Shown here in pieces: positions 282-22,700 of a DNA stretch of 24,345 bases. The position numbers and the translations under genes were made by a program. Numbering within the stretch: position 1 is the first letter of the stretch; each line of letters starts with the position of its first letter. A model generated the notes under the pieces. It did not search any database, had not been told where the DNA came from, and saw nothing but the letters and a program-made list of their open reading frames with translations. Where the stretch lies: IMG/VR virus record IMGVR_UViG_3300033148_001615, positions 1 to 24,345 of that record, one strand, 5' to 3'. The stretch comes from a virus. Taxonomy: Duplodnaviria > Caudoviricetes.

Positions 282-635
282 TTAAACTCCTGCTGCTTTT
301 ACTCTAGCTTTAAATTCCATTATTCCTACTGCCCTTCCAAGCCTACCCTCTAGTGCATTTCTTTGTCTTTGTTCTTCTACTCCACCAGATGAGCTACCAA
401 ACCTTGAAGTATCAGCATCTCTTCCTCTTTGTGCTGCTCCTGCTGCTTTTCCAAATAGTCCTAGCATATCAAAGTTAGATTTGCCTTGTGCGTAACCACG
501 AAATAATTTGAACGCATCTGGTTTGTGTTGTACTTCAACCCCTGCTGTTTTAAGCCGCCTAAAAAGACTGTCGTTTATCCCAGGTAACGTCCCCATAGTT
601 ACTACTCTTCCACCCCTTTTTTGAAATTGTTTCAT
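282..635 (-). CDS. Gly/Ala/Arg-rich putative internal virion (ejection/pilot) protein; start uncertain
   Basis: 117-aa ORF with helical low-complexity composition. The frame stays open upstream to 686 (LPGRSRQTYSGEEAWNR), so the true start may be the ATG at 690 via a +1 shift. Confidence 0.6.
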   Translation of the reverse strand: MKQFQKRGGRVVTMGTLPGINDSLFRRLKTAGVEVQHKPDAFKLFRGYAQGKSNFDMLGLFGKAAGAAQRGRDADTSRFGSSSGGVEEQRQRNALEGRLGRAVGIMEFKARVKAAGV

Positions 636-691
636 CCTGTTCCAGGCTTCTTCTCCAGAGTAAGTTTGTCTTGAGCGTCCTGGGAGTCATG

Positions 692-1049
692 TCATGTTAA
701 ACTAATAGACTGATTCCCCTTGAGTCTCCCTGCTGCAATTGCATCTTGGTAAAATCGTTTAGTAACTATAGCAACAGGAGCGTTAGCTCTACTTAGTACA
801 TTTCTCTCTTGTTCTTCTTGCCGTTTAATTGATTTACTAGCTGCTTCTCCAAAGGCCGTAGCTTTTCCAATATTAGTCTGTGTTAAAGCATCTGCTCTCA
901 ATCCTTCTCTGGTGTGCTGTAGATACAGCAGAACCAAGTGTAGGAAGATTGGCTCTTTGAACAGCTTGGGAGGTAAGCCCACTAGTACCCATTCCTCTAT
1001 TAATTAGTCTATCTCTAATTGAATCTAATCTTGCTAGGGGTGCGGCCAT
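692..1049 (-). CDS. Putative ejection protein split across two frames (+1 frameshift near 900-920)
   Basis: ATG at 1049 with AAGGAG 10 nt upstream gives MAAPLARLDSIRDRLINRGMGTSGLTSQAVQRANLPTLGSAVSTA..., stopping at 873. The protein-like continuation TREGLRADALTQTNIGKATAFGEAASK... is in the +1 frame and ends at TGA 692. Confidence 0.5.
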
Positions 1050-1053
1050 AAAA

Positions 1054-3405
1054 TTATAGCTCCTTTATTTCTTCCCAATCAATAGCATATGCTTGGATAT
1101 CAATTGGTGGATTTATTGTATTAGACGTATTATACACAAAACTTCTAAGCCCCCATTGAAACCAGTATTTAGTGGCTCCCATAGGGACGGATCTTTTACT
1201 TACAAACTTATCTAGCATGTCAATATTTTTTAAGTTTACTGGGTAGCTAGCTTTATTCTCATAACCCATAAGTTCAACGATTTGACTACTATCTGACTTA
1301 CTATGTACCAAATAGATATAGTCAATCTTAGCCCTACTAGGTGCTTCAGCTACAGCGTACTGTTTAGTTAAAGTATTATATATAATATACCCAACGTAGT
1401 AATCATCACTTGTAACTGGATTAACAGTCCAAGCTGGAGATACAGTAATAGTTGTGGTTGTGTTACTTTGAATCTGTCTGTGTTCTCCATTCTCGTTATC
1501 TACAAATACCCATGCCCCTGCTAATCCGTCATCTGTAGTATTAAATGTCGCTCCAGTATCTGTAAGAGTAGTGGAGGACGAGGATGTAGGCTCCCCAGTA
1601 GCAGATCCGCTAATTACTGCACTAGCATACCCATACCAATTCTTGTAGAAGAATCCAAGGTCATCTACCAGTATCCCCTGTCCTGCTGAGTTAGGACTTT
1701 TAACATACACACTACCAATCATCTCAGTAGCAGGAAGATGGCTCCATTGGTTGCTTTTATTGTTGAACATAAAAGCATGATCTCCAATATATAGCCAGTA
1801 AATATCTTTGTCTGAATCATAATAAGCATGAGACAAAGTATAGTCTGCTGGGTCTAAGCTGATACTAGTGTCAGTACCGTTAAATACGTTATCTAAAAAT
1901 GGAGAGGAAATTCTTACTGTGTTTGTATTGGGTTGGTCAATCACAGCACCAGTTAAATCATCTGTCGGACTTTGACCAATTCTAATCTTATAAACTCCTG
2001 TTGTACCAGCAAAAAATATTACATCTCCATTATTATCTGTTTCAATAGTCTCGTCTGAAACAGTACCAATCTGCTCAAATAAAACATTAGTCCTAAAGCT
2101 ATCAACTCCAAATCCACTCACACTTATAACTTTACTGCTTGTAAAAAGTAATAAATTATTGGATGTGCTATGTATACCAGTAAGAGGTTTTTTAGCTCCA
2201 GTTAAAATCTTATCTGTTTCTAACCAATACTTATCACCATTTGTGGTAGCTTCCACTGGAAGTCTAGTGAAGTTTATACTAGTACCTTCACTAGTAAACA
2301 AGACACCTTTGTACTCGTTGATGTATCTAAAACTAGGGGGATCTATAGTATTAATAGTTGTATCTAATGGTCTAGTTAAAGCCACATCTGGTGTACCATC
2401 TTTGAATGTACTAGTAGCCGAGTCCTGACACCCAACTAAGAAGTAGTCTGATCCACTTGCAACAGTTCTATATATGCAATGCTGGTCAAATGGAAGAGGC
2501 TCAGACCCAGAAAGAGTAGCTGTGGTAGAGGTACTTCCACCGTACACTATAACATCCCCAGTGGAACATCTAGCGGTATCCGCAAGAGTACAAGTACCAC
2601 TAGTCCAGGTAGGAAAACAATTTGACTGTACTAACGCTCTGCTTGATCCTCCAGAAAGAGTAGCAGAGTCTGAACTACTAGATTCAGATTCAATACCCCA
2701 CTTACTATTGTAAAATGTAGTTTTATATTTATATAAAGAACTAGTAGGTTGGGCTGCTAAGTCATGTGAAGCTACGTAGGAGTAGTATCGAACACAACTC
2801 CCTGTTCCAGTTGATCCTCGCCAGTATTTACCGCTTATTAAAAAGTTTACTTTTCCTACTCCATCTGCCCCCCCTGTCATACCTCCTACACTAGAACTGG
2901 AAGAGAAGTTTTGTACCGAAGGACTCCCAACTCCTGCGATAGCTGAAGCACTACCAGTACCAGCCCACTTATGTAGTCCGTCAGTAGAGCTATTAAAATA
3001 CATTGTGTCACCAATCTGTACACAGTCTGCTTTCTCATCTGTTAAAGACCCTAAAATAGAGGTACGATTAGTTCCATCTGTATCGTAAGTAACAATCTCA
3101 TCTGACTCTTTAACAACTAGTTTCTTAGTGGAGCCTGTACTATTTTCATAATAGCAAACCATACTTACAGTAGTATCAGTATGTGCAGTAGTGTTTAGTT
3201 TAACTCTTCCTTTAACTACTCTTATATTTCCTTCGTCCGTAATATAAGCGTTATTAAATACTGAGTGTGATCCATCCTCAATCTTATCGGCTGCTAACCG
3301 TTGAAGTCCTTTAAGATCAGATACAGAAGTAATCCCAGCAAACAATACTTGAGAGCAAAGAAATATAGATATTGTAAGTGAAGCTAGTATTTTTTTTATA
3401 AGCAT
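1054..3405 (-). CDS. Probable tail nozzle / DNA-stabilisation protein (P22 gp10 / T7 gp12 class) with N-terminal signal peptide
   Basis: 783 aa, beta-strand rich, directly after the adaptor gene. The mature N-terminus (DLKGLQ..DKIEDG...NNAY...GNIRVVKG) resembles the usual nozzle start. Leader is MLIKKILASLTISIFLCSQVLFA. Confidence 0.65.
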   Translation of the reverse strand: MLIKKILASLTISIFLCSQVLFAGITSVSDLKGLQRLAADKIEDGSHSVFNNAYITDEGNIRVVKGRVKLNTTAHTDTTVSMVCYYENSTGSTKKLVVKESDEIVTYDTDGTNRTSILGSLTDEKADCVQIGDTMYFNSSTDGLHKWAGTGSASAIAGVGSPSVQNFSSSSSVGGMTGGADGVGKVNFLISGKYWRGSTGTGSCVRYYSYVASHDLAAQPTSSLYKYKTTFYNSKWGIESESSSSDSATLSGGSSRALVQSNCFPTWTSGTCTLADTARCSTGDVIVYGGSTSTTATLSGSEPLPFDQHCIYRTVASGSDYFLVGCQDSATSTFKDGTPDVALTRPLDTTINTIDPPSFRYINEYKGVLFTSEGTSINFTRLPVEATTNGDKYWLETDKILTGAKKPLTGIHSTSNNLLLFTSSKVISVSGFGVDSFRTNVLFEQIGTVSDETIETDNNGDVIFFAGTTGVYKIRIGQSPTDDLTGAVIDQPNTNTVRISSPFLDNVFNGTDTSISLDPADYTLSHAYYDSDKDIYWLYIGDHAFMFNNKSNQWSHLPATEMIGSVYVKSPNSAGQGILVDDLGFFYKNWYGYASAVISGSATGEPTSSSSTTLTDTGATFNTTDDGLAGAWVFVDNENGEHRQIQSNTTTTITVSPAWTVNPVTSDDYYVGYIIYNTLTKQYAVAEAPSRAKIDYIYLVHSKSDSSQIVELMGYENKASYPVNLKNIDMLDKFVSKRSVPMGATKYWFQWGLRSFVYNTSNTINPPIDIQAYAIDWEEIKEL

Positions 3406-3408
3406 ATC

Positions 3409-4521
3409 TTAATCCCTTTCAAGTGGGTTAAACTGTGAAGCCCCTGATTTTCTTGCTTTAATCTCAGCTTCACTTTGCCATTTTAAGTTCTTAATAACTC
3501 TATACATTTCATCAAACTGTTTCAAACTGTCCCTAAAGTTAGCTTTAGATTGGTTAGTTTTGACTGGGTTCTTCTCAAACCTTTCATAGTAGCAAAGCCA
3601 TAAGCACCCAAACATCAGTGGTGTATGATCTGGAAGCAAAGAAATATCTGAAGGTCTAACTAGAGGTTGGGGTTTAATAAGAGCCTCAATCTCAACAAAA
3701 TAGGTGTCATCTGCAACAGGTCTACCATGAATTAATCCACTTCCTTTTGCTCCAATAGTGTAATCTTTTCCAGCACCACTATCCCCTTGGTAGGTGTCTT
3801 TAAGAGTTAACTGAGTCGCACTAACCACTTCCTGAATCCTGTAAGGAGTAGGATGTTCATTTATTCTAAAAGGCATACCCTCCATATCAGCAGTAAAGGT
3901 TGTTCCGCTACCAGTTACGGTAAGTGAATCCTGTGTCATTGTTACTGTACCGTCTGTGTAGTAACTATAATCTGTAAGTCCCCCAAAGAAGAATTCTTGA
4001 GGTTCACCCAAATCTGTTTTAATAAAGATTGACCTGTTAGCATTTAGTATATCTTTCTCGCTCTCTTCAATAAAGATGCTAACAATAGAAGAAATACTAG
4101 GGTCTAGATGTTTATCTGGAAATATGATTTTATAGTTCTTTCCAGAAGCACTACTTTTAGGATAAGAAGCAACTAACTTTAAGGACGTAGTAGAGATGGA
4201 GGCATGAGGATCTATTTTATAGACCTGGTTATCTACAATTACATACCCAAGTCTATCAATATCAGCCCAGCTAGTTCCAGATCCTGTTACTTCTCTGCCC
4301 CCGTTAGTTACAGAGATAGTTCCTGCTATTATCGGGGCTTTGGTAGTGAAGAAGAATCTTTGTTTACGCCACTCGTAAGTCTTTCTATAGAAAAGAAAAT
4401 CCTGAACCATATTAATTCTGGTTTTAATCTGTGCTAGAATGTTAGCATCCTCCACAGTATCCTCTGTAACATTCATAGTCCTAAGTATCTCTTTATATAA
4501 ATCTTGAAAAGTAACTATCAT
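3409..4521 (-). CDS. Probable head-tail adaptor / tail tubular protein A-like (P22 gp4 / T7 gp11 class) with two inserted beta domains
   Basis: Helical N-terminus (TFQDLYKEI...IN..Q...EW) and C-terminus (LP..H..L), typical of adaptors; two internal GT(I/V)xxT...VTGSGT(S/T)(W/F) repeats; SD AAGGAG. Confidence 0.65.
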   Translation of the reverse strand: MIVTFQDLYKEILRTMNVTEDTVEDANILAQIKTRINMVQDFLFYRKTYEWRKQRFFFTTKAPIIAGTISVTNGGREVTGSGTSWADIDRLGYVIVDNQVYKIDPHASISTTSLKLVASYPKSSASGKNYKIIFPDKHLDPSISSIVSIFIEESEKDILNANRSIFIKTDLGEPQEFFFGGLTDYSYYTDGTVTMTQDSLTVTGSGTTFTADMEGMPFRINEHPTPYRIQEVVSATQLTLKDTYQGDSGAGKDYTIGAKGSGLIHGRPVADDTYFVEIEALIKPQPLVRPSDISLLPDHTPLMFGCLWLCYYERFEKNPVKTNQSKANFRDSLKQFDEMYRVIKNLKWQSEAEIKARKSGASQFNPLERD

Positions 4522-4532
4522 GTGTATTCTCC

Positions 4533-4877
4533 TTAGTTAATCTGAGTCCAGGTAGTTTTTATATCTCTATCATTCTCACAACCAGCATGTCTTTGTATTA
4601 TCCATTCTCTATAGTTTATAACTTTAGAAGCTGTGGCTATATACCCTTCGCCACATTCTCCTTTATATTCGTGCATATAATAAACAATTTTATTTCCACC
4701 CATCTTTTGTTTAACTTGTTCATATCGTTTGTTTTTCTGGTGGAAAGTATTCTGGGTATTCACTAATGAATCTAGCAACTTGTTGGCGATAACTGTATCC
4801 CCATTTGTAGGAGAAGCTAGACATATACTAGATCCGAGTAACATATATGTTACCAACAAAAGTATAGAAAACCTCAT
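4533..4877 (-). CDS. Small hypothetical protein with signal peptide
   Basis: 114 aa; leader MRFSILLLVTYMLLGSSICLA; ATGA overlap with the upstream LamG gene. Confidence 0.75.
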   Translation of the reverse strand: MRFSILLLVTYMLLGSSICLASPTNGDTVIANKLLDSLVNTQNTFHQKNKRYEQVKQKMGGNKIVYYMHEYKGECGEGYIATASKVINYREWIIQRHAGCENDRDIKTTWTQIN

Positions 4878-5629
4878 GTTATCATCACCACCCTACTTCT
4901 TGGTACAGTAACATAGGCATCTAATCCGTTGTCCTTAATATCATCTATTTGAGCTTCACTAAGAGCTTCACTAAATATAAAAGCATCATCAACCAACCCG
5001 TCTGTAAAGTTAGTTGGTGCGTCATTAGCTCCTAGCATAAATACTGCTGTGCTATTGTTAATTGATCCGTTAGTTGTATCAGATCCAGTTTCTTGTGTGC
5101 CATCTATCCAGATAGTCATTGTTGTACTACTAATACGACAGACTATATGATACCAAGTACTTATTGTTAATGTAGTTGTTGAAAAAAATTGTCCATCAAA
5201 CGCACTTCCATCACTACTAGATAAACACAATACTGTGTTATCTGTTCTTGCTTGAAGGTTATACCCTTTTGAGGTTCCAGATTTACCTATAAGTGATGCC
5301 TGAATCCCCACTGTCTCAGGTTTATACCATAACCCAAAAGTAATATCACCAGTAACATCTAAACCTGATTGGCTCCCATCAGTGATGGAGAGGTATTCAC
5401 TATTACTTAGTTCAAAATCAGCAGCATTTCCAAACTGGCCTGTCCCAAATAAAACAGTATTATTATCTGTTAAATTATTAGTGTTAACAGATTCATCTGC
5501 TCTAGCCCCACTAGTCTCGTTTAAAAGCCAAGCCCCTTCAAGGTTAGTTGTGTCACCAGCATAAGCTAGATTTGAGAACGCTAGCATTGTACTAATAAGT
5601 ACAACTAGTTGTATGATTTTATACATCAT
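4874..5629 (-). CDS. LamG / concanavalin A-like lectin domain protein (candidate receptor-binding) with signal peptide
   Basis: LamG hallmarks: GAWLLNETSG, G.FGNAADF, TFGLWYKP, WYHIVC, IWIDG, F.LGA, F.DGLVDDAFIFSEALSEAQI. Likely start at ATG 5629 or 5626 after AAGGTGG; leader MYKIIQLVVLISTMLAFSNLAYA. Confidence 0.85.
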   Translation of the reverse strand: MMYKIIQLVVLISTMLAFSNLAYAGDTTNLEGAWLLNETSGARADESVNTNNLTDNNTVLFGTGQFGNAADFELSNSEYLSITDGSQSGLDVTGDITFGLWYKPETVGIQASLIGKSGTSKGYNLQARTDNTVLCLSSSDGSAFDGQFFSTTTLTISTWYHIVCRISSTTMTIWIDGTQETGSDTTNGSINNSTAVFMLGANDAPTNFTDGLVDDAFIFSEALSEAQIDDIKDNGLDAYVTVPRSRVVMIT

Positions 5630-7166
5630 CCACCTTATAGTCAATATGAATTCTAACAACTGTAGGACTACTAGCAGTTGCTGTAATTTGCAAGTTTAAT
5701 GGTACATCAGCAGCTATTCCTGCATTATCAAATCCAGTAGTTGATTGTGTATCATTATCACAAACTAGACCTGCCGAAAGAACATCAGTACCTGCACTAT
5801 TAGGTGTACCTTCTGCCCTTTCGTCTAACTGGATAGTGGCAGTTCCTGTATCGGTTGAGCAACTAACTCTGCTAATAGTAACTGCTGTTGCTAACTTAGC
5901 TTGTATTCTATTTGTATCCGCAGTTGTAGGATCAAAAATATTAATACTAAGCATATGAGTTACAACTTCATCGTCAAGATCCATATCATCATTAACAGTA
6001 TCATAAGTAGTGTATGATCCACCCACTAAAGCATCAAAGTCTCCTACTTCTGGAACGTCATCATCAGTAGTACAACTTTCAACAGCCCCTGCTGCGTCTA
6101 CACCAAGAGGGTACTGTCCTGCACCACAGTTAGCCCCGTTAGCAGAAAGAGCATCTGCTGTATCGGATGTAGGCCAATTATTGCCCATATCAATTCTTAG
6201 TTTATCTGCTGCTGGTTCAGTAAAAATTGAGTTAGTATCTCCAACAGTAGCAATCTCAACTAAATCGGCAGACTCATCTGCCCCGTCATCCCCTAGGTCT
6301 AAGATGTTAGGTGTACCTCCTGCCCCTGAAGCATCCGCACCGCAACTAGCAACACCTGTTCCGTCTGTATCTATTGTATCACAGCCTACAAGACCAGGAA
6401 ACTTGTAAGCACCAGCTCCTACAATATCTATAACTACATTAGTGCCGTCGTGAGAAATGCGAACTCCTTTAGTACCTCCGCTATCAGAGAGTTCAATTCC
6501 ATCACCATCAGTTTTGGGTTCTAGGTAAGCACCTACATCGTTCCACTCGCTAAGTGCTGTACAAGAAAGCACACCAGCTTCTGTAATAGTACAGTCACCT
6601 GACAAAGCTTTATTCTCCCATCTATTGTCTCCTACTCCATCCCAAAGAAGAACCTGGGCATTAGCTGGAGCAGTAGTGGTGATATCAGTTAAATCAGATA
6701 AGGAGTTATCTGATAAGTTATCATCATTTAAAGCTCCATCATTAGGAGTAAATACACCTACTCCTATCTGAGTCTCTAATTCTGCTTCAGTATCTAATTC
6801 TGTTTCTAAAATAACTGGAGAAAAGTCAAAAAGAACTTTATCTGCTGAGGGTTCTGTAACAATATTATCAGGATCATTAGAGGTAGCAAGTTCTGTAAAG
6901 GCAGTAGATTCATTATTACCATCGTCATCTAAGTCTAGAATAATACCTGAGCCTGAGGTTACAGCATTAATCTGGATAGACTCATCTCCTCCATTGTTGT
7001 TTTCAACGATAGTAGTGTTGGAGCCAGCAACGATCTTACCGTTAAGATAACCAGCAGTAGAGTCGTTACTACTCACTTTCACCTTTCTATCAAACTCTGC
7101 ATAAGCCACTGTGCTTACGAGGCATAAAGCAATTAGACTAATAAAGATCCGATTCATAGACTTCAT
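5619..7166 (-). CDS. Acidic fibre/spike-like virion protein with signal peptide, internal repeats and C-terminal beta-sandwich domain
   Basis: 515 aa, Asp/Thr/Gly-rich; fibre-type motif LSDLTD....PANAQVLLWDG...WEN; duplicated ILDLxDDG..ES segment; leader MKSMNRIFISLIALCLVSTVAYA. Confidence 0.7.
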   Translation of the reverse strand: MKSMNRIFISLIALCLVSTVAYAEFDRKVKVSSNDSTAGYLNGKIVAGSNTTIVENNNGGDESIQINAVTSGSGIILDLDDDGNNESTAFTELATSNDPDNIVTEPSADKVLFDFSPVILETELDTEAELETQIGVGVFTPNDGALNDDNLSDNSLSDLTDITTTAPANAQVLLWDGVGDNRWENKALSGDCTITEAGVLSCTALSEWNDVGAYLEPKTDGDGIELSDSGGTKGVRISHDGTNVVIDIVGAGAYKFPGLVGCDTIDTDGTGVASCGADASGAGGTPNILDLGDDGADESADLVEIATVGDTNSIFTEPAADKLRIDMGNNWPTSDTADALSANGANCGAGQYPLGVDAAGAVESCTTDDDVPEVGDFDALVGGSYTTYDTVNDDMDLDDEVVTHMLSINIFDPTTADTNRIQAKLATAVTISRVSCSTDTGTATIQLDERAEGTPNSAGTDVLSAGLVCDNDTQSTTGFDNAGIAADVPLNLQITATASSPTVVRIHIDYKVDDV

Positions 7167-7479
7167 ATCCTTTTCTCCTTAAGGTTTCTAAAATTTTTCT
7201 CCAACTTCTACAAAATATGTAACCACTCGTTTCATCAGACAATGTAAACTGAGGAATATGGCAAAGTCTACTAACACCACAAACAAACCCACTATCGTCA
7301 CAAATGGCAGCATGATCTTTAGCATAACGTATCCTTATCCCCCTGTGTTCATTTCTTTTACGGACAGCAGCAAGCAACCTGTCTCTAGAGATTGACCCAG
7401 AGAACCATCCTTTATTATAAGCATCTTGTAAGCTTTTGACTCCAACTGATACTGGTTTAGGGGTAAACTTAATTTTCAT
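7138..7479 (-). CDS. Hypothetical basic protein
   Basis: 113 aa, overlaps both neighbours in the operon; C-terminal RSWRKILETLRRKG motif. Confidence 0.7.
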   Translation of the reverse strand: MKIKFTPKPVSVGVKSLQDAYNKGWFSGSISRDRLLAAVRKRNEHRGIRIRYAKDHAAICDDSGFVCGVSRLCHIPQFTLSDETSGYIFCRSWRKILETLRRKGYEVYESDLY

Positions 7480-7852
7480 GTTCTATTCCACCTAGAATAT
7501 AAAAAACACTAGCGTTTTGAGTAGAGTTATTATTAGTTAACTTTATTCTCATCTTAGTATTACTTCCACCATTTAACCAAATGTCACATAGATCCCCCAC
7601 TATCGGAATATAAGCAGCGACAAATGCTTTTATAATTACAACTGCACTAGTATCCCAAGGGTTAGACCAAGTAGACCCACCATTAGTAGAGAATAAAATC
7701 TCTGCACAAATAGCATTTGTATCAGAGGAAATACAAATCTTTCTTAACTCCAAGATATGATTATCATCCAGAGTGTAATCAAGTGTATACACTCCTCCAT
7801 CTGCATCAATACTAGCCGTTCTTGCCCTAACAAATTTAGATTTAGTTGCCAT
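7469..7852 (-). CDS. Small beta-sandwich (jelly-roll-like) virion protein
   Basis: 127 aa with alternating strand pattern, ending VFYILGGIEHEN; 2 nt after the upstream stop. Confidence 0.7.
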   Translation of the reverse strand: MATKSKFVRARTASIDADGGVYTLDYTLDDNHILELRKICISSDTNAICAEILFSTNGGSTWSNPWDTSAVVIIKAFVAAYIPIVGDLCDIWLNGGSNTKMRIKLTNNNSTQNASVFYILGGIEHEN

Positions 7853-7854
7853 AG

Positions 7855-8319
7855 TTACGCCTCAAATCCTGTCCAAGTCCCGAACACTTCTCTAGCTGCA
7901 CCAGCGAAAGTTGATCTACGCATTACTATACGTCTGGTTCCGTCCCCTACAAAATCTAAGTCCACATCTATTTGGGAAGAACAACCGTTAATATAGATTA
8001 CACCTATAAGAACCATACCTGTTAAGTTACCATTAGGATCACTATAGAGAGTAACCTTACTCCCACCTACTGTACTATGTTCTGACCCAGCACCGAATCT
8101 CTGTACGGTTAAAGTTTTAGTATCAGTGATAGTATAGATGGTATCTGCATCAGAATTAATATCGCTAAGAGCGACTTGTTTTACTGGTGTAGTATCGGCT
8201 GGAGCAGATACCTCTTGAGAAACAAGAATTCTTCCAGCAGAATTAACCCTAGCAGAGTACTGGTTTATTTTATCTACTAATCTGAACTCTTGATCTCCTT
8301 TACGCTCAATATCACCCAT
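7855..8319 (-). CDS. Small beta-sandwich (jelly-roll-like) virion protein
   Basis: 154 aa; YTITDTKTLTVQRF ... VFGTWTGFEA; N-terminus MGDIERKGDQEFR. Confidence 0.75.
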   Translation of the reverse strand: MGDIERKGDQEFRLVDKINQYSARVNSAGRILVSQEVSAPADTTPVKQVALSDINSDADTIYTITDTKTLTVQRFGAGSEHSTVGGSKVTLYSDPNGNLTGMVLIGVIYINGCSSQIDVDLDFVGDGTRRIVMRRSTFAGAAREVFGTWTGFEA

Positions 8320-8324
8320 AACTA

Positions 8325-8513
8325 TTACTTCCCTTTTTCTATTTTTTCTACTACTTTACGAAACTCTGTAATTAAATCGTAGAGAAGTTTATTATTAGCC
8401 TCCATAAGCCTAATCTTAACTAATTCAGCGTTTCCAAAATGAATCTGAATCCCAAGATTTTCTTTCTTCTTCTCTTCTTTTTTAACTACCTTATCTTTTT
8501 TATTCTTAGGCAT
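8325..8513 (-). CDS. Small Lys-rich/coiled-coil hypothetical protein
   Basis: 62 aa, clear SD TAAGGAG 8 nt upstream. Confidence 0.7.
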   Translation of the reverse strand: MPKNKKDKVVKKEEKKKENLGIQIHFGNAELVKIRLMEANNKLLYDLITEFRKVVEKIEKGK

Positions 8514-8542
8514 TTTAAATTCTCCTTAGCGATTAAGAAGTA

Positions 8543-8560
8543 GGGGAGCCGAAGCTCCCC
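8543..8560 (-). terminator. GC-rich cUUCGg hairpin (weak terminator or mRNA-stabilising stem)
   Basis: GGGGAGC-TTCG-GCTCCCC on the minus strand just after the 8577..9731 stop, followed by a weak U-tract TACTTCTT. Confidence 0.7.
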
Positions 8561-8576
8561 CCTTATTCTTTAGTTA

Positions 8577-9731
8577 TTACACATCATTACCAATAATAGT
8601 ACTATACATATCCATAGTAGTATTATCGTCATTACGTTTAATCACTCTTACTGTTCCAGTAGAAGCAACAGGAACTTCAATCGGAGGATCGAAGATAACC
8701 TGTTCTGAAAGCTTGGAACCAGAAGTGAATACAACGGCCTTTGGGACTAACGCAGCCACAGGGCCGACACGAACTTCATACTTTCCTGCACCAGAAGCTC
8801 CAACAATTACACTCTTCAAAAGAAAAGTAGCATTTGTAACAGTATAATCATGGTTAGCAGAGCCATCTTTTGCAATAGCATCAGCTTGGTCATAATCATG
8901 GACTTCTGAAGCACTTACAGCAGTAGTGACAATCTGAACAGGAACTGGATTGGTTTGAGAAACATCCGTATCCGAGATCTGTAGATTGGCATTTGCATTT
9001 AAACTATCAGGAGTACTTTGTTCCACAGTAACAACATCTGTGTTATCCAAAGCTCTGATATCTAAGTTAACAGCATCTACCGTAATGGAATTTCCACCGT
9101 CTGCAATCGTAACATCGCTGGTAAGATCTAACTCCACCCACAATGCTCCTCTTGCATTAGAACGTAAAGAAACCCAATCACCCTCAACAGGGGTAAGTGC
9201 AGCAAGTACATCGTCACGCTCAATCATTACAGCATTACCAACAATTGCTGCTGGTGTTGCAACATCTTCTGTGTACGCAGTTCCACCTGGATTTGAGATG
9301 ATAAGCTTACCATCAGCATCCACCAGAGGGACATAAGCAGTACCAGATCCGTCTTTTGCAGTATTGGCGTAAATACGAACACTATCAGATGACTCAACAA
9401 GATCATCAATATCTAGTTGACTTGCATCAATAGTGATACTATTGCCACCGTCAGCGATGTTTACATCATTTGTGATACTGGTAAGTGTAGTAACAGTTCC
9501 AATATTCCATGCACCTGACTGTGTGGCTGCAACAGTACCATCAACGGTAATACTACTACCCCCGTCTATAACGGTTACTGTTCCACCAACTTGCAAATTT
9601 CCACTAGCATCAATTAAAGCGGTTTCTGTGCCATCTGTAATAGAGATAAAGAAAGGATTTGCGGCTGCAAGCCCTAAGTCATTAGTCCCATCATACAGAC
9701 GTACACGCTGAATAGAACGAAAATCTGCCAT
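8577..9731 (-). CDS. Fibre/decoration-like virion protein with DGGxSIT(V/I)D repeats and C-terminal beta-sandwich
   Basis: 384 aa; three repeats (IDGGSSITVD, ADGGNSITID, ADGGNSITVD); ends MYSTIIGNDV; no Cys and no signal peptide. Confidence 0.75.
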   Translation of the reverse strand: MADFRSIQRVRLYDGTNDLGLAAANPFFISITDGTETALIDASGNLQVGGTVTVIDGGSSITVDGTVAATQSGAWNIGTVTTLTSITNDVNIADGGNSITIDASQLDIDDLVESSDSVRIYANTAKDGSGTAYVPLVDADGKLIISNPGGTAYTEDVATPAAIVGNAVMIERDDVLAALTPVEGDWVSLRSNARGALWVELDLTSDVTIADGGNSITVDAVNLDIRALDNTDVVTVEQSTPDSLNANANLQISDTDVSQTNPVPVQIVTTAVSASEVHDYDQADAIAKDGSANHDYTVTNATFLLKSVIVGASGAGKYEVRVGPVAALVPKAVVFTSGSKLSEQVIFDPPIEVPVASTGTVRVIKRNDDNTTMDMYSTIIGNDV

Positions 9732-9991
9732 TATTTTTTACCTCCTTCTTCAAGTTTAATTTCAATAACGGACTCTTTTTGAATCGTAGCTTTTACTCTC
9801 ACAATTTCTTTTGCAAGAGTTGCTTTCTTTAGCTCAATCTGTTTCATCTCAACTGTCCGTAATCTGTCAAGATGAACATCTAATTGTTTTAGTTGATTAA
9901 GCTTTTCGCTAAGAATAACATTTAGATACTGTACTCTAAGTTCTTGATCTTCTCTTATTAGTTCATTTCCTGATCTGTCTATATCACCCAT
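9731..9991 (-). CDS. Small coiled-coil protein
   Basis: 86 aa with heptad pattern; TAATG overlaps on both sides; N-terminus MGDIDRSG. Confidence 0.75.
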   Translation of the reverse strand: MGDIDRSGNELIREDQELRVQYLNVILSEKLNQLKQLDVHLDRLRTVEMKQIELKKATLAKEIVRVKATIQKESVIEIKLEEGGKK

Positions 9992-10344
9992 TATTGCACC
10001 CTATGCCCTATAATAGTAGAGGAAAAGTTAGCTACATTTGAATCACAATGCTCTACTTTAATATCTATAAAATCATTTTTATTTAGCTTCCAAGAAGCAG
10101 GAAACTTAATTCTCATAGTACGGTTCTGTTCTGAGGTTTTATACTTAAGTTTCAATTCCCCATCTTTGTATACACTGTACTCTGCATCTACTTGTCCAGT
10201 GGCGATAATTTCGTCTACAAAGAAAAGACCTTTACTATCTGTGTTTGTAAATGTTTGTACAATAGTAATAGTTGTGGTAGGAACAGTTAGTTCCTCATCA
10301 AAATGTATTTCATTACTTGAAGCACTTCTTCCATCAAACCCCAT
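9991..10344 (-). CDS. Small beta-sandwich (jelly-roll-like) virion protein
   Basis: 117 aa, ends FSSTIIGHRVQ; SD AAGGAG. Confidence 0.75.
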   Translation of the reverse strand: MGFDGRSASSNEIHFDEELTVPTTTITIVQTFTNTDSKGLFFVDEIIATGQVDAEYSVYKDGELKLKYKTSEQNRTMRIKFPASWKLNKNDFIDIKVEHCDSNVANFSSTIIGHRVQ

Positions 10345-10370
10345 AACTACTCCTTTTAAAACCTAGCCAA

Positions 10371-10393
10371 GGGGACGTATATAATACGCCCCC
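10371..10393 (-). terminator. Intergenic stem-loop
   Basis: Minus strand GGGGGCGTAT-TAT-ATACGTCCCC: a 10-bp stem with one G-U pair that forms only in the minus-strand RNA. Confidence 0.6.
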
Positions 10394-10419
10394 AAGCACT
10401 AGAGTTAGTTTACTTAACT

Positions 10420-10785
10420 TTAAGACGTTGCTCCATCACAAATACAACTATCAGCAGTAGCATCATCAATAGCAACAAACAATCCACCTGTTGCTTCAAC
10501 TGCAACTAATGGTGTAGCAATCCCACAAGTCGTAACGCAGGACACATTCGCACTAGAAGCCACTACCCAAGCAGCCGTATCAGCAAGGACTTTATCCGCT
10601 ACAATTATATCAAGTTCCGCTAGTGTATCAATTTCTGTAACGTCAATCAACGTACCTGAATCACTAACAGTCGTACTCGACAAGTCAAGGATATTAGGAG
10701 CCGTTGTTGCTTCTGTATCAGCAGAGGCAAACACTGAAGTACTCAACGCAAAAACAGCGATGAGAGTAAGGATAAACTTTTTCAT
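10420..10785 (-). CDS. Small acidic protein with signal peptide, directly downstream of the capsid gene
   Basis: 121 aa; leader MKKFILTLIAVFALSTSVFA; four Cys in the C-terminal part (CVTTC...CIC); SD AGGAG. Confidence 0.8.
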   Translation of the reverse strand: MKKFILTLIAVFALSTSVFASADTEATTAPNILDLSSTTVSDSGTLIDVTEIDTLAELDIIVADKVLADTAAWVVASSANVSCVTTCGIATPLVAVEATGGLFVAIDDATADSCICDGATS

Positions 10786-10802: not shown

Positions 10803-10829
10803 GGATAAGGGAGCCGAAGCTCCCCATCC
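10803..10829 (-). terminator. cUUCGg hairpin after the major capsid gene
   Basis: GGATGGGGAGC-TTCG-GCTCCCTTATCC; no real U-tract. Confidence 0.7.
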
Positions 10830-10842
10830 TATTTTTATTTTA

Positions 10843-11769
10843 TTAACCAGCGTTATACGCCCAAAGAACCTGAACTCTAGGAGCTTCAAGAACCTTAGCA
10901 ACAAAGCTGACTTTATAACCAACAGTCGCTCTCTGGTTGAGAGGATCTTCCGTACCAGCAGTCCCAAAAGGCTTACGGATAATTTCCAAACCAGCACTAG
11001 CAATATCAACCACACCGAAAGCATCACCACCTAAGAAAATGTTACCAAAGGTGTTAGTTTCCGTTTCATCTGCACGAACATTGGTAGAGAGCATAAGATC
11101 AATACCATACGCATTACCAATAGCACCTTTTTCCTGAGCAGTGTTAGATGTGTTAGCTGCAAGAATCACAAAACTATTCGTTGCAGTTTCACTCAACAGA
11201 TCAAACGCCATCAAAGGATGCAGAATACCTTTAAAGCTCCCACCAACAGAGGGAACATCGGCAACCTGAAATGCTTTCTGGATCTTACGGAGATCGGCTG
11301 ATGCAATATTCACAGTACCAGACTCAACGGCAGCTTTATTAGCCACACCGTTAGCATAATTCTGAGTACCATTCACATCAAGTTCATTCCGAGCAATACT
11401 ATCCAACGACAGAGCAGCCTGGTACGCCAAAAGATCCGTAGCATCCAAGAGAGTATCGTTAATAGCATTAAGCTGAAACCAATCTGACACTGTGACATAG
11501 TTACCATACTGCTTCACAGTTGCAGAAACCGCACCACTCGCCAAAGACTGACCATCAGGAGTTATAGCCTCTGACAACTCAGTAACATCAGCAGCGAAAT
11601 TCGTAAAGCGATTCCACTTAATCGTATTCCCACCATGAGCAGGAAGAGATTTCTTCTTTCCAAATTTAACTACATGTAGAGTTTTTACAAGACGATCAAG
11701 AAAGCGACTTTCAAGGTAGCTATCAATATGGTCACTGTAAGAACCCGACTTATTCGTATTTAAAGCCAT
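10843..11769 (-). CDS. Major capsid protein, N4-gp56-like family (HK97 fold)
   Basis: 308 aa; motifs FG.KK.LP...G.TI.W.R, L.E..TP.G..L....V.A..KQYG.....SD, DPLNQRATVGYK; SD GGAGG; follows the scaffold gene. Confidence 0.9.
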   Translation of the reverse strand: MALNTNKSGSYSDHIDSYLESRFLDRLVKTLHVVKFGKKKSLPAHGGNTIKWNRFTNFAADVTELSEAITPDGQSLASGAVSATVKQYGNYVTVSDWFQLNAINDTLLDATDLLAYQAALSLDSIARNELDVNGTQNYANGVANKAAVESGTVNIASADLRKIQKAFQVADVPSVGGSFKGILHPLMAFDLLSETATNSFVILAANTSNTAQEKGAIGNAYGIDLMLSTNVRADETETNTFGNIFLGGDAFGVVDIASAGLEIIRKPFGTAGTEDPLNQRATVGYKVSFVAKVLEAPRVQVLWAYNAG

Positions 11770-11796: not shown

Positions 11797-12858
11797 TTAA
11801 CTTCTAAACAGTCCTTTTTGTTTGAGTAGTTTCTCTTTCTCTTCAAGAGAGAGTTTATTGAACTTTTTAGACTCCATTAGATCCTCAGGTTTGGGCTTAC
11901 TAGTGTTGCCTTTTCCCATTCCCTTAGTCCGTTCAATCTCTGCATCTCGTTTAGAATTGTCCACTTCTCCAGCAGTTGTTTCTGCTTTTGTTTCCAACTC
12001 AGCGGCAAGTTTATAGTTTTGTGCAATCACCTTATCCTTAATTTTACCAAAGAAATTAGGAGCAGATGTTATTGCTGTAACTAGTTCTTCATCAGTTGGA
12101 AATTCCCTATCAAGAATTTCATTGACTTTCTCAACCAGTGGGGCTAAAGGGCTATTCTTAAACTCTTCAACATCCTTATTAAACTGGCTAATATTTGTCT
12201 GAGATTTTTCTTGTACAAGGTTCTGCTTTAAAGATTCAATGTCCTGGCCTACATACTTCTTAAATGCAGAAAAGATTTGTTCCCCAAAAGCACCAAACAT
12301 CTTTGCAGCCTCAGGGTTATCCTTCTTCATTTCTTCTACGATAGCCAGCTTCATTTCATCTGTACCAACCTGTTCTGATTTCTTACCTTTATCATCACCA
12401 GACTTAGCAAACTCTCGGAGTACATCATTTTCAGTTTCAAGTTTTTTAAGTCTCTGGGACTTACGAGTAAATTCAGCTTCCAGATTTTTATACGACTTTT
12501 CCATCTTAGCAAATCTATTCTCTAAGATAGAAAGTTTACCCTGCTTATCCGATTCTGTAGAAGATTCTGTCTCGGACTCAGGTTTGGACTGTTCCTCTTT
12601 ATTCTCGGAAGAACTATCCTGCTCATCAGTAGTTTTATCCTCTGGGGACTTCTCTTCTGAGCTAGCGATTTTAGTATCATCTTCAGAGTCCTGTACTACG
12701 TCTTGATCCACTGAAACCCGTTCATTAGTGATAACGCTATTCTCTTTAAGAAAAGCTTCTTTCTGCTCTAACGAAGCAGATTGAAAATTTTCCTTAACAC
12801 TAAGATCAGAGGCCTCTGAAGATTGACTTCCAGGTTGCTCTTTATTTTCTTCAGTCAT
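11797..12858 (-). CDS. Probable capsid scaffolding protein
   Basis: 353 aa; acidic disordered N-half, coiled coil (KSYKNLEAEFTRKSQ), position just before the capsid gene. Confidence 0.8.
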   Translation of the reverse strand: MTEENKEQPGSQSSEASDLSVKENFQSASLEQKEAFLKENSVITNERVSVDQDVVQDSEDDTKIASSEEKSPEDKTTDEQDSSSENKEEQSKPESETESSTESDKQGKLSILENRFAKMEKSYKNLEAEFTRKSQRLKKLETENDVLREFAKSGDDKGKKSEQVGTDEMKLAIVEEMKKDNPEAAKMFGAFGEQIFSAFKKYVGQDIESLKQNLVQEKSQTNISQFNKDVEEFKNSPLAPLVEKVNEILDREFPTDEELVTAITSAPNFFGKIKDKVIAQNYKLAAELETKAETTAGEVDNSKRDAEIERTKGMGKGNTSKPKPEDLMESKKFNKLSLEEKEKLLKQKGLFRS

Positions 12859-12859
12859 T

Positions 12860-13165
12860 TTATTTCTCCTTTTCGTTCTTTAAGAACTGCTGCTTATTGA
12901 AGTCTATTCTAGCAAGCAATTTCTTCAATTCAGCAATTCGTCCAGTATAGTCTATAAGTTCATAGGCTCTTTCTGGACTTGGTTTGACGTTCTTCTCCTC
13001 GATTTTTTTTCTCAAACTATCTAACGAGTTATTAATTAAATCGTAGATAACTTGAAACTCATCGGTTTTGAGTAAACGCCCCCACCTTTCTAGATCAATA
13101 ACTTTCTGATCTAGGATAACTTTTGTTTTAATATTAGATTCCTTCATTTGATCTGAAGTCCTCAT
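12860..13165 (-). CDS. Small helical hypothetical protein between portal and scaffold (start uncertain: 13180, 13165 or 13147)
   Basis: Helical ORF of about 100 aa in a slot commonly filled in P22-like head modules. Confidence 0.7.
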   Translation of the reverse strand: MRTSDQMKESNIKTKVILDQKVIDLERWGRLLKTDEFQVIYDLINNSLDSLRKKIEEKNVKPSPERAYELIDYTGRIAELKKLLARIDFNKQQFLKNEKEK

Positions 13166-15167
13166 CGTTTTGTTCCGCATCCTTAAATCCTGTGGTAACA
13201 ATTCTTATGGCAGCAAGTCTTTGTCCAACTGCCTCAATCAAATTCTTTCTAACATTAGAAGCAAGGTTACTATTTTGTACAGCATTAACAACTTCTTTGC
13301 TATATTCCTCAGATTCTGTGATTGGATCTGCTAGGATGACTCTATTTAATAGCGACTCATACGCTTTTAAATAAGCTACATGATCGTCATTAAGATTAAT
13401 TCTTACATTTTTTCCTAGCTGAAGAAGTTGAACCTCTCCTTCTGGAGACTCTTCTAAGTTAGATTCAGGTCGTTTATCAATTTCAGGGATCAAGTCTCCA
13501 AAACCCATAAGTTTAACTTGCTTAAGTACAATAGGAACAACATCAATTCCCTGATTTGTCAACGGAATTAGATTCTGTACCAAGTTATTCAATGCGTTAA
13601 TTTTAAATGCTTTCTCTCCTAGTTCTCTAATCCCAACAAAGTTAAGATCCATACCTTCCAAAGCAATCTCACTAGGAACAACCCTAATAATTTTATCTCC
13701 TACTAGGTTTACATCTCTACCTTCTGGTAAAAACTGCTGATTCAACATCCAGAATAGTCTAACTAAAGGCTTTAGAATCTCTTCTTCAAATTGTGTAACT
13801 ACTAATTCAAATCTTTCAAGACCACCTTGAGCTACTAAACTAACAGCAGTAGCGGTTCTATCTAAGCTACTACCAGTAGGTGAACCACCAAGTAACTTAG
13901 AAGCACCTGTACTGTCTTGAATATCTTGTTTAATAACTGCTCCTTGAGCTAAAGCAGTAGGACTAAAGTCAGCAGGAACTAAATCCTTAAGACCACTCAT
14001 ACTATCTGTTTCAATAATTGCAGTATGAAGATCCTGAAGTTGTGAATGATCTATATTAGCTTCTCTATCAATCAAGAACTTCTTTTTAAGAATAAAGCTT
14101 CTAAGATCCATTAACTGAGAACGAAGAGTATTAAGTTCTAACTGCAAGGGAATATTCACAGTCATAAGACTATGACCATACGCTTGACCATCAAGCTTAA
14201 TATACCTTCCTTTAAGGTAAGGTTTCTCTTGGTGATCGAATGGATTATCTTCTGGGGAACGAATAACAGTGGCAAAGTCTCCTACTACTCCTAACTCAAT
14301 AATGCCATCTTCTACAACTTCTTCACTTTCCTTGTCTACGTCACTACCAGTAATAAGCCATTTAGGAATATTGCCAATACATTTTAAGATTTCAATCTTG
14401 TGTTCATGTACACTATATTTATGGCCACCAAGTCCTTTAATATGGTCTGACTCTTGCTTAGTGGTATCTGTTTCCTCAGTTACTTTCTTATCTTTTAACT
14501 CCAGAATAGCTTCCTCGTCATAGATTCCTACATCATTTCCTTTTTCATTTCTCTTTCTTTTACCCCATAATGTATTATAATCTACTGTAGTTCTTTCAAT
14601 TACAAAGCCTTCTAAGTTAGCATCCTTAGGATCAATAAAAATATCCCATACAGAAGGAAAGTAAAAATCAGGGTTATCAAACATCGTTTCCCATACTTCT
14701 ATTCTTTTACCATTAATTCTTCTATATCTCTTCTTAACTTTCTTTTCCCAGTATGTAGAGATAAATACCGTACCATAGATACATAAGTTTCTATAAGCTC
14801 CAATAAGTTTAGACCTTACCCCCACATCTTTAAACTGTTCTGTAATAAGCTTCTTTACAATTAGAGCATCCTCAACTGCAAGGTCATCATTCTTGTCCTT
14901 AGCCACTACATCAAAGAACTCACCAGTAGGATCAAAAATAGTTTTATCCATTCTAGGAACTACAATCTCTGTAGCTTGGTTAAGAGCAGGAATCCTAACT
15001 TTAGCAACCCCTTTATAAAAATCTTCTAGGTCGTTATTATAAGCTCTCTCAGCAGATTTCCATTGTTCTTCAAGACCATTCTGCTCTCGGAGCATCTGAA
15101 AATGGTTTTTAAGTTCTTTAACTAGATTAACTGCAGCCTCATTTATTTCCTGTTTTGAAATAGCCAT
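13134..15167 (-). CDS. Portal protein (P22-like)
   Basis: About 677 aa after TerL; YGTVFI..YW, DIFIDP.A, YG.SL......Q.ELN, TG.S....G......TAT motifs; ATG at 15167 overlaps the TerL stop (TAATG). Confidence 0.88.
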   Translation of the reverse strand: MAISKQEINEAAVNLVKELKNHFQMLREQNGLEEQWKSAERAYNNDLEDFYKGVAKVRIPALNQATEIVVPRMDKTIFDPTGEFFDVVAKDKNDDLAVEDALIVKKLITEQFKDVGVRSKLIGAYRNLCIYGTVFISTYWEKKVKKRYRRINGKRIEVWETMFDNPDFYFPSVWDIFIDPKDANLEGFVIERTTVDYNTLWGKRKRNEKGNDVGIYDEEAILELKDKKVTEETDTTKQESDHIKGLGGHKYSVHEHKIEILKCIGNIPKWLITGSDVDKESEEVVEDGIIELGVVGDFATVIRSPEDNPFDHQEKPYLKGRYIKLDGQAYGHSLMTVNIPLQLELNTLRSQLMDLRSFILKKKFLIDREANIDHSQLQDLHTAIIETDSMSGLKDLVPADFSPTALAQGAVIKQDIQDSTGASKLLGGSPTGSSLDRTATAVSLVAQGGLERFELVVTQFEEEILKPLVRLFWMLNQQFLPEGRDVNLVGDKIIRVVPSEIALEGMDLNFVGIRELGEKAFKINALNNLVQNLIPLTNQGIDVVPIVLKQVKLMGFGDLIPEIDKRPESNLEESPEGEVQLLQLGKNVRINLNDDHVAYLKAYESLLNRVILADPITESEEYSKEVVNAVQNSNLASNVRKNLIEAVGQRLAAIRIVTTGFKDAEQNDEDFRSNEGI

Positions 15168-19522: not shown

Positions 19523-19786
19523 ATGTTATACAGAATCTTTACAGAGGATAAAGGGAACGTAAAAGAAATAGCAAAACTAGCTTCTAGGTACTTTGAAGGA
19601 TTTACTATCTTCAAGTCCTTAGGATACTATAAAGGGAAAGCAGAAAAAAGCTTACTTATAGAGGTAACTAGTCTAGATGAAAATATATGCTTAGATATAA
19701 ATGATCTAGCAGATGATATTAAAGTAGTAAACAAACAAGAGACAGTACTAGTCGAAAAGATAGCTTGCAGTAGTAAACTGATTTAA
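19523..19786 (+). CDS. Candidate SAM lyase (T3 SAMase / DUF3574-like fold)
   Basis: 87 aa; GFTI....GYYKG..E.S..IE ... LA..IK...KQETVLV matches the G-x-Y...E...Q[ED]xVL signature. Confidence 0.6.
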   Translation: MLYRIFTEDKGNVKEIAKLASRYFEGFTIFKSLGYYKGKAEKSLLIEVTSLDENICLDINDLADDIKVVNKQETVLVEKIACSSKLI

Positions 19787-19809
19787 AATAAAAATTAGGA
19801 GGTATTACA

Positions 19810-20127
19810 ATGTTAAGTCCAGAATATATCAGGGCAAAACAAGATAAAAAAACAAATAAAGCAAGACTAGAGGGTACTATACCCTACCTAGCAGAAAGCA
19901 ATGGAGATAAGAATGTAGTAAACCCACCTTTTATAGGTGTTTTCGTACCCTATGCTTATGAGGTAGTGGACACATTTTTTGTGGACAAAACAGGTATTGG
20001 AGCAGATTCAGAGCCTGCTTTAACTTTAGATCAATTTCTAGCTAAAGTCAAAAAGGGCTTTTACTATGCGATAAAAGAGGAGGGACAGTTTCAGATTTAT
20101 ATTAGGGAATTCAAGAAACTATATTAA
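19810..20127 (+). CDS. Hypothetical early phage protein
   Basis: 105 aa; FVD.TG.G...EPALT..QF and EEGQFQ.YI motifs; SD AGGAGGT. Confidence 0.75.
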   Translation: MLSPEYIRAKQDKKTNKARLEGTIPYLAESNGDKNVVNPPFIGVFVPYAYEVVDTFFVDKTGIGADSEPALTLDQFLAKVKKGFYYAIKEEGQFQIYIREFKKLY

Positions 20128-22487: not shown

Positions 22488-22700
22488 ATGGTGGATACTA
22501 ATATTTTATTTGATATATTCCTATTATGCTTGTGGTCTGCCATGTCCTTCCTTGGAGGGTATGTCAAGGCATCATGGGATAAGGAAAAAGAATTTGACAA
22601 GGAACGTAAAGGCATGTACACTACCTTTAGAGAACACATAGACAGAGTAAAAGATAATAACTCAAATTGGTGGAAAGGAGAAGAAAATGAAAAAGTATAA
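22488..22700 (+). CDS. Small protein with one N-terminal transmembrane helix
   Basis: ILFDIFLLCLWSAMSFLGGYV followed by a charged tail; SD GGAGG. Confidence 0.7.
   Translation: MVDTNILFDIFLLCLWSAMSFLGGYVKASWDKEKEFDKERKGMYTTFREHIDRVKDNNSNWWKGEENEKV

Follow-up and report, generated by a model that had tools for sequence, protein, structure and literature searches.

The window, a stretch of 24,345 nucleotides that closes genome G001 into a circle, comes from an uncultured short-tailed (podophage-type) phage whose apparently complete genome of about 43.8 kb encodes its own terminase, portal, polymerase and primase-helicase. Features of the window, with the basis for each assignment, are as follows.

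282..1049, minus strand: first likely ejection-protein gene, leaderless (position, size, weak PHROG matches)
1054..3405, minus strand: podophage nozzle, 783 aa, beta-propeller plus platform (AlphaFold model, fold matches)
nt 3337-3405, minus strand: predicted Sec/SPase I leader of the nozzle, residues 1-23 (custom screen)
3409..4521, minus strand: head-tail adaptor, leaderless (PF24175, E 1.7e-4, below cut-off)
4533..4877, minus strand: 114-aa protein, predicted leader of 21 aa (leader in 4/4 homologs)
4874..5629, minus strand: LamG/ConA-like lectin domain protein, predicted leader, 2 mature Cys (PF13385, E 3e-21)
5619..7166, minus strand: fibre-like protein of 515 aa, acidic and with paired Cys, predicted 23-aa leader (custom screen)
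7138..7479, minus strand: 113-aa protein without a leader (lies immediately upstream of the fibre in 4 loci)
7469..10344, minus strand: leaderless accessory cassette of 127, 154, 62, 384, 86 and 117 aa (common to other phages)
10420..10785, minus strand: 121-aa protein encoded next after the capsid, predicted 20-aa leader (custom screen)
10843..11769, minus strand: major capsid protein, leaderless, no Cys (profile matches)
11797..12858, minus strand: likely scaffold protein, leaderless (acidic coiled coil; role inferred from position)
13134..15167, minus strand: portal (SU10-type), leaderless (domain/profile match)
15167..16798, minus strand: terminase large subunit (domain/profile match)

The genes downstream of the nozzle likely encode ejection proteins, on the same grounds as the gene at 282..1049, which reads as one frame of 264 aa in the genome's second copy but is interrupted in the window by small indels.

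Leaders were called by a custom screen for a 10-residue window with mean KD of at least 2, an n-region net charge of at least +1 and a small-x-small site, run in loose and strict versions. The five ORFs in which the first-pass annotation had reported signal peptides were present on the minus strand with the N-termini quoted, each with a basic n-region, an uncharged hydrophobic h-region and Ala at -1; for 4874..5629 the leader stood but the quoted MYKII start did not, as the ORF reads MMYKII... and MYKII starts at 5626. By this screen, the features of Sec/SPase I substrates, including small residues at -3 and -1, were present in all five proteins. Lipoprotein (SPase II) leaders were rejected, since none of the five has a lipobox Cys at the predicted +1 and leader Cys positions vary. 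Capsid, scaffold, portal, adaptor and the 7469-10344 cassette showed no leader, as had been claimed, and the same was noted for TerL, the 7138-10344 genes and the ejection proteins; adaptor (8/8 loci), capsid and ejection proteins were leaderless in every locus read. Specificity of the screen was indicated by its results with the 35 homologs of the leaderless 113-aa protein, none of which passed, and with distant nozzle-like proteins, 2/104 of which passed. In the replication arm only two matches appeared, both short ORFs judged spurious. Judged from these sequence features, the leader-bearing proteins are very probably exported and cleaved.

The identity of the nozzle, claimed from the sequence, was borne out by an AlphaFold model (pLDDT 89.7) whose top fold matches were solved nozzles, ranks 1-27 of the Foldseek search of the PDB being podophage tail complexes throughout. 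Structural alignments gave VIA Z values of 20-28 (maximum 27.9) and rmsd values of 2.6-4.0 Å over 426-485 residues, with model residues 22-783 aligned to whole nozzle chains and with a beta-propeller and a platform of N- and C-terminal segments, as in podophage nozzles. The fold is thus shared at full length with T7 gp12, SU10 gp17, P22 gp10, Sf6 gp8, Pa223, VP1, Carin1 and cyanophage A4 (PDB 7ey9, 7z4b, 8eap, 7sg7, 9nwi, 8zkk, 8ck1, 9k09), as are the portal-adaptor-nozzle-ejection gene set and the N-terminal register after cleavage, whereas identity is only about 10% and the predicted 23-aa Sec leader and paired Cys are present here only. A PDB sequence search with the nozzle profile returned no match. 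Model residue 22-25 aligned with chain residue 1-3 of Pa223, SU10, VP1, P22 gp10, Sf6 gp8 and T7 gp12, and nozzle residue 24 directly follows the predicted cleavage site. Since six of the eight known chains align from residue 1-3 (Carin1 from 5, A4 from 16), those six have no leader in front, and cleavage of the present protein would therefore restore a normal N-terminus.

Homologs had been proposed as a check on the leaders, and close nozzle homologs keep them in 54/59 cases by the loose screen and 53/59 by the strict screen, as opposed to the 2/104 noted above for distant homologs (Fisher p about 1e-34, the relatives not being independent). The six strict misses were three 5'-truncated calls (P0015, P0041 and P0058) and three over-extended starts, in which the leader was visible in the alignment. 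Position -1 was Ala in 50/55 aligned sequences and A, G or S in 55/55, while identity to the query nozzle was 26% in the leader and 51% in residues 24-80. Thus, the character of the leader is conserved rather than its sequence. In a quick tree with long branches, built from 38 rows (12 chosen close homologs and the 26/95 distant ones with enough coverage), the close leader-bearing nozzles, 18 rows, fell in one branch with SH-aLRT 99; the tree needs 2-3 changes of leader label, and the leaderless sister rows P0066 and P0067 are N-terminally truncated.

The possibility that true starts lie downstream of the hydrophobic segments was rejected, along with dual starts, as an SD-preceded start near the cleavage site was found in 0/20 genes and six of the eight nozzle genes lack any start codon there. 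Eight Cys are present in the mature nozzle, with likely pairs 84-128, 204-272, 263-280 and 310-326. Columns 310/326 were both Cys in 16 sequences and single in none, with corresponding counts of 17 and 0 for 616/619, 10 and 2 for 84/128 and 23 and 5 for 263/280, all inflated by relatedness. Thus, nozzle Cys are gained and lost in pairs. Among fibre-like homologs the Cys count was even in 79/87. These results bear on the reading that the leaders are membrane tethers or weak signals and that the tail is built as usual on the cytoplasmic face of the membrane. Such a reading would accord with the total Cys count of the nozzle, which is even in 26/53 close and 52/100 leaderless proteins and thus not skewed in parity, but the Cys are paired, internal restarts are lacking and the active site of SPase I faces outwards, so that a basic n-region together with conservation at -3/-1 (A/G/S at -1 without exception) implies selection for SPase I cleavage, and we regard tethering as very unlikely.

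Four further proteins carry predicted leaders. The 114-aa protein is likely a small outer tail part, a positional guess. The lectin domain protein, likely a receptor-binding part, matched PF13385 with 76.5 bits against a curated cut-off of 27.6, and a leader was found in 7/7 loci carrying this slot. The 515-aa protein is a candidate fibre on the strength of gene position, modular mosaicism and a 43-aa segment (residues 26-68) 65% identical to the tail fibre of Pelagibacter phage HTVC019P (YP_007517845.1); no Pfam or PHROG match was obtained that would point to the N-terminal adaptor-binding domain and trimeric shaft of T7 gp17-type fibres. Among the matches listed, 88/120 fibre-like homologs passed the strict screen. 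The shared segment is C-terminal in HTVC019P and lies right after the leader here, the remainder being unrelated. The 121-aa protein is a candidate head decoration protein, also a positional guess, and its slot retains a C-terminal four-Cys motif in 4/5 occupants.

The fibre modules are common to many secreted proteins, among them one of prepilin type labelled Candidatus Liptonbacteria, as might be expected if the exported proteins were not virion parts and instead formed a nozzle-derived surface or decoy complex, the particle being tail-less or completed by a helper phage. The nozzle itself speaks against this, as it has its full length, shows 42-62% identity from one end to the other, is located between adaptor and ejection genes, and is the sole nozzle of a genome that encodes the terminase, portal, polymerase and primase-helicase listed above. 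Nozzle-profile matches were one per genome in G001-G004; a second, leaderless nozzle was not found, and no unassigned ORF longer than 400 aa was seen in G001, the profile search reaching relatives only. Because this single nozzle gene serves an apparently complete genome, the earlier alternative that the proteins act only at the host surface is unlikely for the nozzle, and a non-virion role of the exported set is improbable. Given export, the nozzle very likely ends up in the virion.

Since the nozzle and four outer candidates bear predicted leaders and the head, portal, adaptor and ejection proteins bear none, assembly of the tail tip likely takes place outside the cytoplasm. The earlier proposal of export and late joining is supported by the nozzle fold, the kept leaders and the rejection of downstream starts, and the reading we favour, as reasonably probable, is that the nozzle, the fibre-like protein, the lectin and the two small proteins are exported and join cytoplasmic heads at a late breach of the inner membrane. 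The five proteins would cross the inner membrane via Sec, be cleaved by SPase I and fold oxidatively outside the cytoplasm; among the phage genes, none was recognised as disulfide-forming or as dedicated to assembly. DNA-filled heads would meanwhile stay shut, either through closure of the portal or through a temporary cytoplasmic plug. In T7, the portal is described as able to close and hold DNA before tail addition, although the valve holds DNA only briefly and is reopened by adaptor binding (PMC6702177). Thus, a leaderless, cytoplasmic adaptor, which here bears two inserted tail-fibre-like beta domains, would need an extra block. The 113-aa protein may be this plug and is a candidate cytoplasmic assembly or timing factor. 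It has no Pfam or atlas family, its best fold matches were HicA-like (Z 6.2, weak) and one unnamed viral protein, and no counterpart was seen in G003, whose nozzle bears a leader.

Under the favoured reading, a small membrane protein and a lipid-hydrolase-like enzyme, both from the end of the late operon, would open the inner membrane, and the two pools would mix while the envelope around them is still closed, ahead of release, with tail parts docking on heads built in the cytoplasm. In the lysis slot, G001 and L013 carry a putative permuted NlpC/P60 (YiiX-like) gene, L008 and L010 a PLA2-like gene (atlas score 0.79, TM about 0.55, weak) and L011 an alpha/beta hydrolase. The permuted NlpC/P60 type (YaeF/YiiX, C92) was defined by an N-terminal GD..F...S..I....THxG with His and a C-terminal catalytic Cys; matches were weak for the G001 gene (phmmer 3kw0, E 0.007; 2if6, E 0.08) and below cut-off for its L013 homolog (PF05708, E 0.012). 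Enzymes of this type are described as binding or cleaving lipids (PMC3142127; PMC12994826). The lysis-slot genes thus appear, from weak matches, to be interchangeable and lipid-hydrolase-like. No canonical endolysin or spanin was recognised in the late arm of G001-G004; the early arm of G002, a relative that bears an integrase, gave a weak cell-wall-hydrolase match (PF07486, E 2e-4, below cut-off). A lipid-hydrolase-like slot without a recognisable endolysin fits mixing of compartments at membrane breach. The same finding would suit a scheme with identical export in which heads dock at the inner membrane or pass to its periplasmic side (or into an internal compartment, if the host is compartmentalised), tails are completed there and release is slow or non-lytic, as lipid-acting enzymes could remodel rather than destroy the membrane. 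Against this scheme, which we consider unlikely, no extrusion ATPase, secretin or multi-pass membrane protein was seen in G001, and we know of no precedent for a 50-60 nm phage head passing through an intact membrane.

The accessory cassette occurs also in phages with leaderless tails, and its 384-aa protein (8577-9731) has a 22-aa leader in L010 only (1/7 loci, none in the other six). The presence of this leader in some loci and its absence from others fit a last step at which the two pools come together. The same pattern would also suit addition of the exported parts only once the cell has lysed, either in the medium or on its debris, as would the predicted solubility, acidity and disulfide stabilisation of these parts; P22 heads can take up tailspikes in vitro. 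Dilution would disfavour assembly of a hexameric nozzle that seals pressurised DNA, and addition after lysis thus seems scarcely probable.

By the established view, tailed phages complete their particles in the cytoplasm and lysis follows. With a Sec-exported nozzle this order would be broken, since the seal of the DNA channel would be unavailable until the membrane opens. M13 pVIII and pIII are examples of filamentous-phage coat proteins that use host export machinery. In the Inoviridae, coat proteins are described as passing through host membrane insertion or secretion machinery, with the particle finished at the envelope (PMC4823517). Predicted use of host export machinery by virion proteins is common to both cases, but the present phage is of the dsDNA head-tail kind and encodes a terminase and a portal, its predicted exported parts are soluble, and no second transmembrane anchor, pI-like ATPase or secretin was seen. 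Inovirus-type membrane assembly was ruled out by the terminase, portal and phage major head protein. Tailed-phage genes with leaders have been described for SAR and signal-peptide endolysins, superinfection-exclusion proteins and surface proteins (PMC7143992; PMC7150955; bioRxiv 10.64898/2026.10.24.761521). Those exports serve lysis or the host surface, whereas the present one is the essential central tail channel. Literature searches, mostly of titles and the starts of abstracts with subscription papers excluded, disclosed no tailed phage described as using such an assembly route. Novelty lies in the inferred route, the parts of the particle being of known podophage kind.

Extended to the clade, the scheme is tentative and somewhat short of an even chance: head, portal and adaptor would form in the cytoplasm, nozzle, fibres and decoration in the periplasm with host disulfides, and a lipid hydrolase, not a holin-endolysin-spanin set, would open the inner membrane and start final assembly inside the envelope. 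If so, membrane breach would be a part of morphogenesis rather than its end. This raises the questions of how DNA is retained in heads that lack a nozzle, how assembly and lysis are coordinated in time, and whether oxidative folding gives phages the use of disulfide-rich, cell-adhesin-like receptor-binding modules.

Relatives of the nozzle and capsid were not found in 185,579 species genomes, nor was a cultured-phage match for the nozzle; capsid matches from cultured phages were only 24-33% identical. The sole label returned by cluster look-ups, a 'Nitrososphaerales archaeon' MAG (33-kb contig), was not taken as a host call, and Omnitrophota/PVC as host was a guess without support in the searches. 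No tRNA genes were found, and promoter-like sites were not enriched (46 observed, 55.9 in shuffles). A look-up of sequencing runs listed none, which carries no information about expression. Genomes of the clade measured about 40-47 kb.

The window was a portion of a podophage-like genome, and the following genes were recognized in it:

15167-16798, minus strand, TerL
13134-15167, minus strand, SU10-type portal
minus strand, likely scaffold
10843-11769, minus strand, major capsid protein
7469-10344, minus strand, accessory cassette
5619-7166, minus strand, fibre-like gene
4874-5629, minus strand, LamG gene
3409-4521, minus strand, adaptor
1054-3405, minus strand, 783-aa gene (nozzle)
minus strand, likely ejection genes

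A second copy of this genome (G001, an IMG/VR record of 43,768 bases) matched the window at 99.7-99.95%. The window crosses a repeat and joins the end of G001 to its start, which makes a complete, circular genome of about 43.8 kb probable, even though the IMG/VR entry gives G001 as linear and 50% complete. DNA polymerase A and a primase-helicase were encoded on the other arm. A YdcK-type beta-solenoid repeat gene (22687-23409, plus strand) is broken within the repeat in G001, at the junction spanned by the window. Relative to G001, the first ejection gene (282-1049) was disrupted by 26-base and 1-base deletions and the fibre contained a 6-base insertion (6789-6794), reflecting either assembly error or strain variation. 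Near-identical GC hairpins with TTCG loops, at 8543-8560 (3' of the 384-aa gene) and 10809-10824 (3' of the capsid gene), are probably terminators of high-copy genes.

The first-pass annotation had described Sec leaders on five virion-module proteins, and these were borne out by a purpose-written screen for a hydrophobic 10-mer, a basic n-region and a small-x-small site, which flagged all five (one only from its upstream start). It flagged nothing among the head, adaptor and cassette genes, as had also been claimed, and no ejection gene. Retention of the nozzle leader was likewise evident among close homologs (n=59, 39-62% identity excluding the query), 54 of which passed the screen and 53 a strict version, the six strict misses being truncated or over-extended gene calls; among distant nozzle-like proteins of at least 500 aa, the screen was passed by 2/104. 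The nozzle leaders were only 26% identical to that of the query, and position -1 in 55 of them was Ala (50), Gly (3) or Ser (2). At the DNA level the nozzle leader was present in 8/8 loci, and a start codon preceded by an SD sequence near the cleavage site was found in none of 20 genes examined. The adaptor (8/8 loci) and capsid (5/5) had no leader. The leader pattern is genuine and greatly exceeds chance expectation. Two distant nozzle-like proteins, P0085 and P0109 (about 27-30% identical), bore leaders that are possible independent gains.

Assignment of 1054-3405 as a nozzle was upheld by an AlphaFold model built on a 55-sequence alignment (pLDDT 89.7), for which Foldseek PDB ranks 1-27 were podophage tail complexes and VIA-align Z scores were 27.9 for Pa223, 26.1 for SU10, 23.7 for P22 gp10 and 21.0 for T7 gp12. 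Nozzle-profile matches numbered one per genome in four genomes, and G001 contained no other unassigned ORF of more than 400 aa. By modelled fold and context, the 783-aa protein is a true nozzle. In the VIA-align register, model residue 22-24 lay opposite chain residue 2-3 of these four nozzles, indicating that the leader is an addition ahead of a complete nozzle; the predicted cut at A23|G24 would give the protein the usual nozzle N-terminus again. In SU10 and T7, as described in PMC9509320 and PMC6702177, the hexameric nozzle is seated on the adaptor and closes off the channel. Some nozzles (P0003, P0039 and P0059, L012:3520-6564) contained an inserted LamG domain, which links lectin to the nozzle itself.

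Among the other four proteins, the LamG protein passed PF13385, and a leader was present in 7/7 loci having this slot. The fibre-like protein, which had 43 residues in common with a pelagiphage tail fibre, had 218 homologs; 88 of the 120 listed passed the strict screen and many further listed homologs had a leader visible by eye. The 114-aa protein (4533-4877) had a leader in 4/4 homologs, and the slot after the capsid gene (121 aa, 10420-10785) in 5/5, four with a common four-Cys end; L009 had no gene in this slot. The C-terminal domain of the fibre also occurred in a prepilin-type protein labelled Candidatus Liptonbacteria (P0258, P0264).

Cysteine columns of the nozzle were gained or lost in pairs at 310/326 (16 both, 0 single) and 616/619 (17, 0), less strictly at 84/128 (10, 2) and 263/280 (23, 5), and leader-bearing fibre homologs had even Cys counts in 79/87 cases, whereas whole-protein parity counted against, close nozzles (26/53) being no different from leaderless ones (52/100); kinship among homologs inflates all of these counts.

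The large ejection gene was followed by a small membrane-protein gene in every readable locus except L013, and by an enzyme-like gene in all readable loci; in this lysis slot the lipid-hydrolase-like genes are interchangeable, differing among relatives:

L004:15851-16528 (G001, minus strand, outside the window) and L013:357-890, permuted NlpC/P60 (YiiX-like), weak match
L008:17113-17743 and L010:17204-17799, phospholipase-A2-like protein, weak match
L011:17650-18574, alpha/beta hydrolase, weak match

Weak as each call is alone, these three unrelated folds point towards lipids. According to PMC3142127 and PMC12994826, enzymes of the permuted NlpC/P60 type contain a lipid pocket, and one of them acts as a phospholipase. 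Most ORFs of G001-G004, picked by our own gene caller and mostly 60-450 aa, were scanned against Pfam, and no endolysin was found in the late arm; the same scan detected a peptidase-M15 gene in L026, a phage that shares the cassette, and, in the early arm of G002, a match to a cell-wall hydrolase that fell below threshold. The latter relative (L040:12974-14220, 19578-19862; L039:6797-9586) carried a tyrosine integrase, an excisionase-like gene, a GroES homolog and additional leader-bearing genes beyond the lysis slot; it is likely temperate, its integrase offering a route to the host. Database searches found no cultured relative or host genome.

Export of tail proteins is the best supported reading. 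The host Sec pathway would very probably export the nozzle, fibre, lectin and two small proteins, which would be cleaved by SPase I and undergo disulfide folding outside the cytoplasm. Two-compartment assembly in some form, as first proposed, is probable. In the particular route that is somewhat favoured, heads would be filled in the cytoplasm and then wait until, late in infection, the membrane is breached by the lipid hydrolase together with the small membrane protein; the pools would then mix inside the envelope, nozzle and fibres would dock on heads and virions would be released. The literature searched yielded no account of tailed phages exporting tail-core proteins. The weak point of this route is DNA retention in nozzle-less heads. 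In T7, PMC6702177 indicates, the closed portal retains DNA for a short time only and opens again when the adaptor binds, so that either adaptor docking would be delayed here or a temporary plug would be needed. A candidate plug is the 113-aa protein, whose leaderless gene (7138-7479), directly upstream of the fibre, was conserved (4 loci, 35 homologs; none seen in the relative G003) and which gave a confident model with weak HicA-like similarity only and no known family.

The 384-aa cassette protein (8577-9731) was leaderless and Cys-free. Its homologs came from 7 viral loci, some belonging to phages whose tails lack leaders. It was leaderless in 6 loci, whereas in the L010 homolog (L010:2804-3931) a leader of 22 aa followed the Met as an insertion and the mature part stayed in register. 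Leaders are thus modular, and one accessory protein, if not more, can apparently function on either side of the membrane. The cassette also occurred in podo- and sipho-like phages that are unrelated (L026, L028-L030). G003 (L041:737-13461) had a leader-bearing nozzle, 51% identical, yet a different SU10-type capsid; its head genes were surrounded by glycosyltransferase, methyltransferase and kinase-like genes, and its capsid gene was followed by one for a TPR-glycosyltransferase. Virion glycosylation is possible in this phage.
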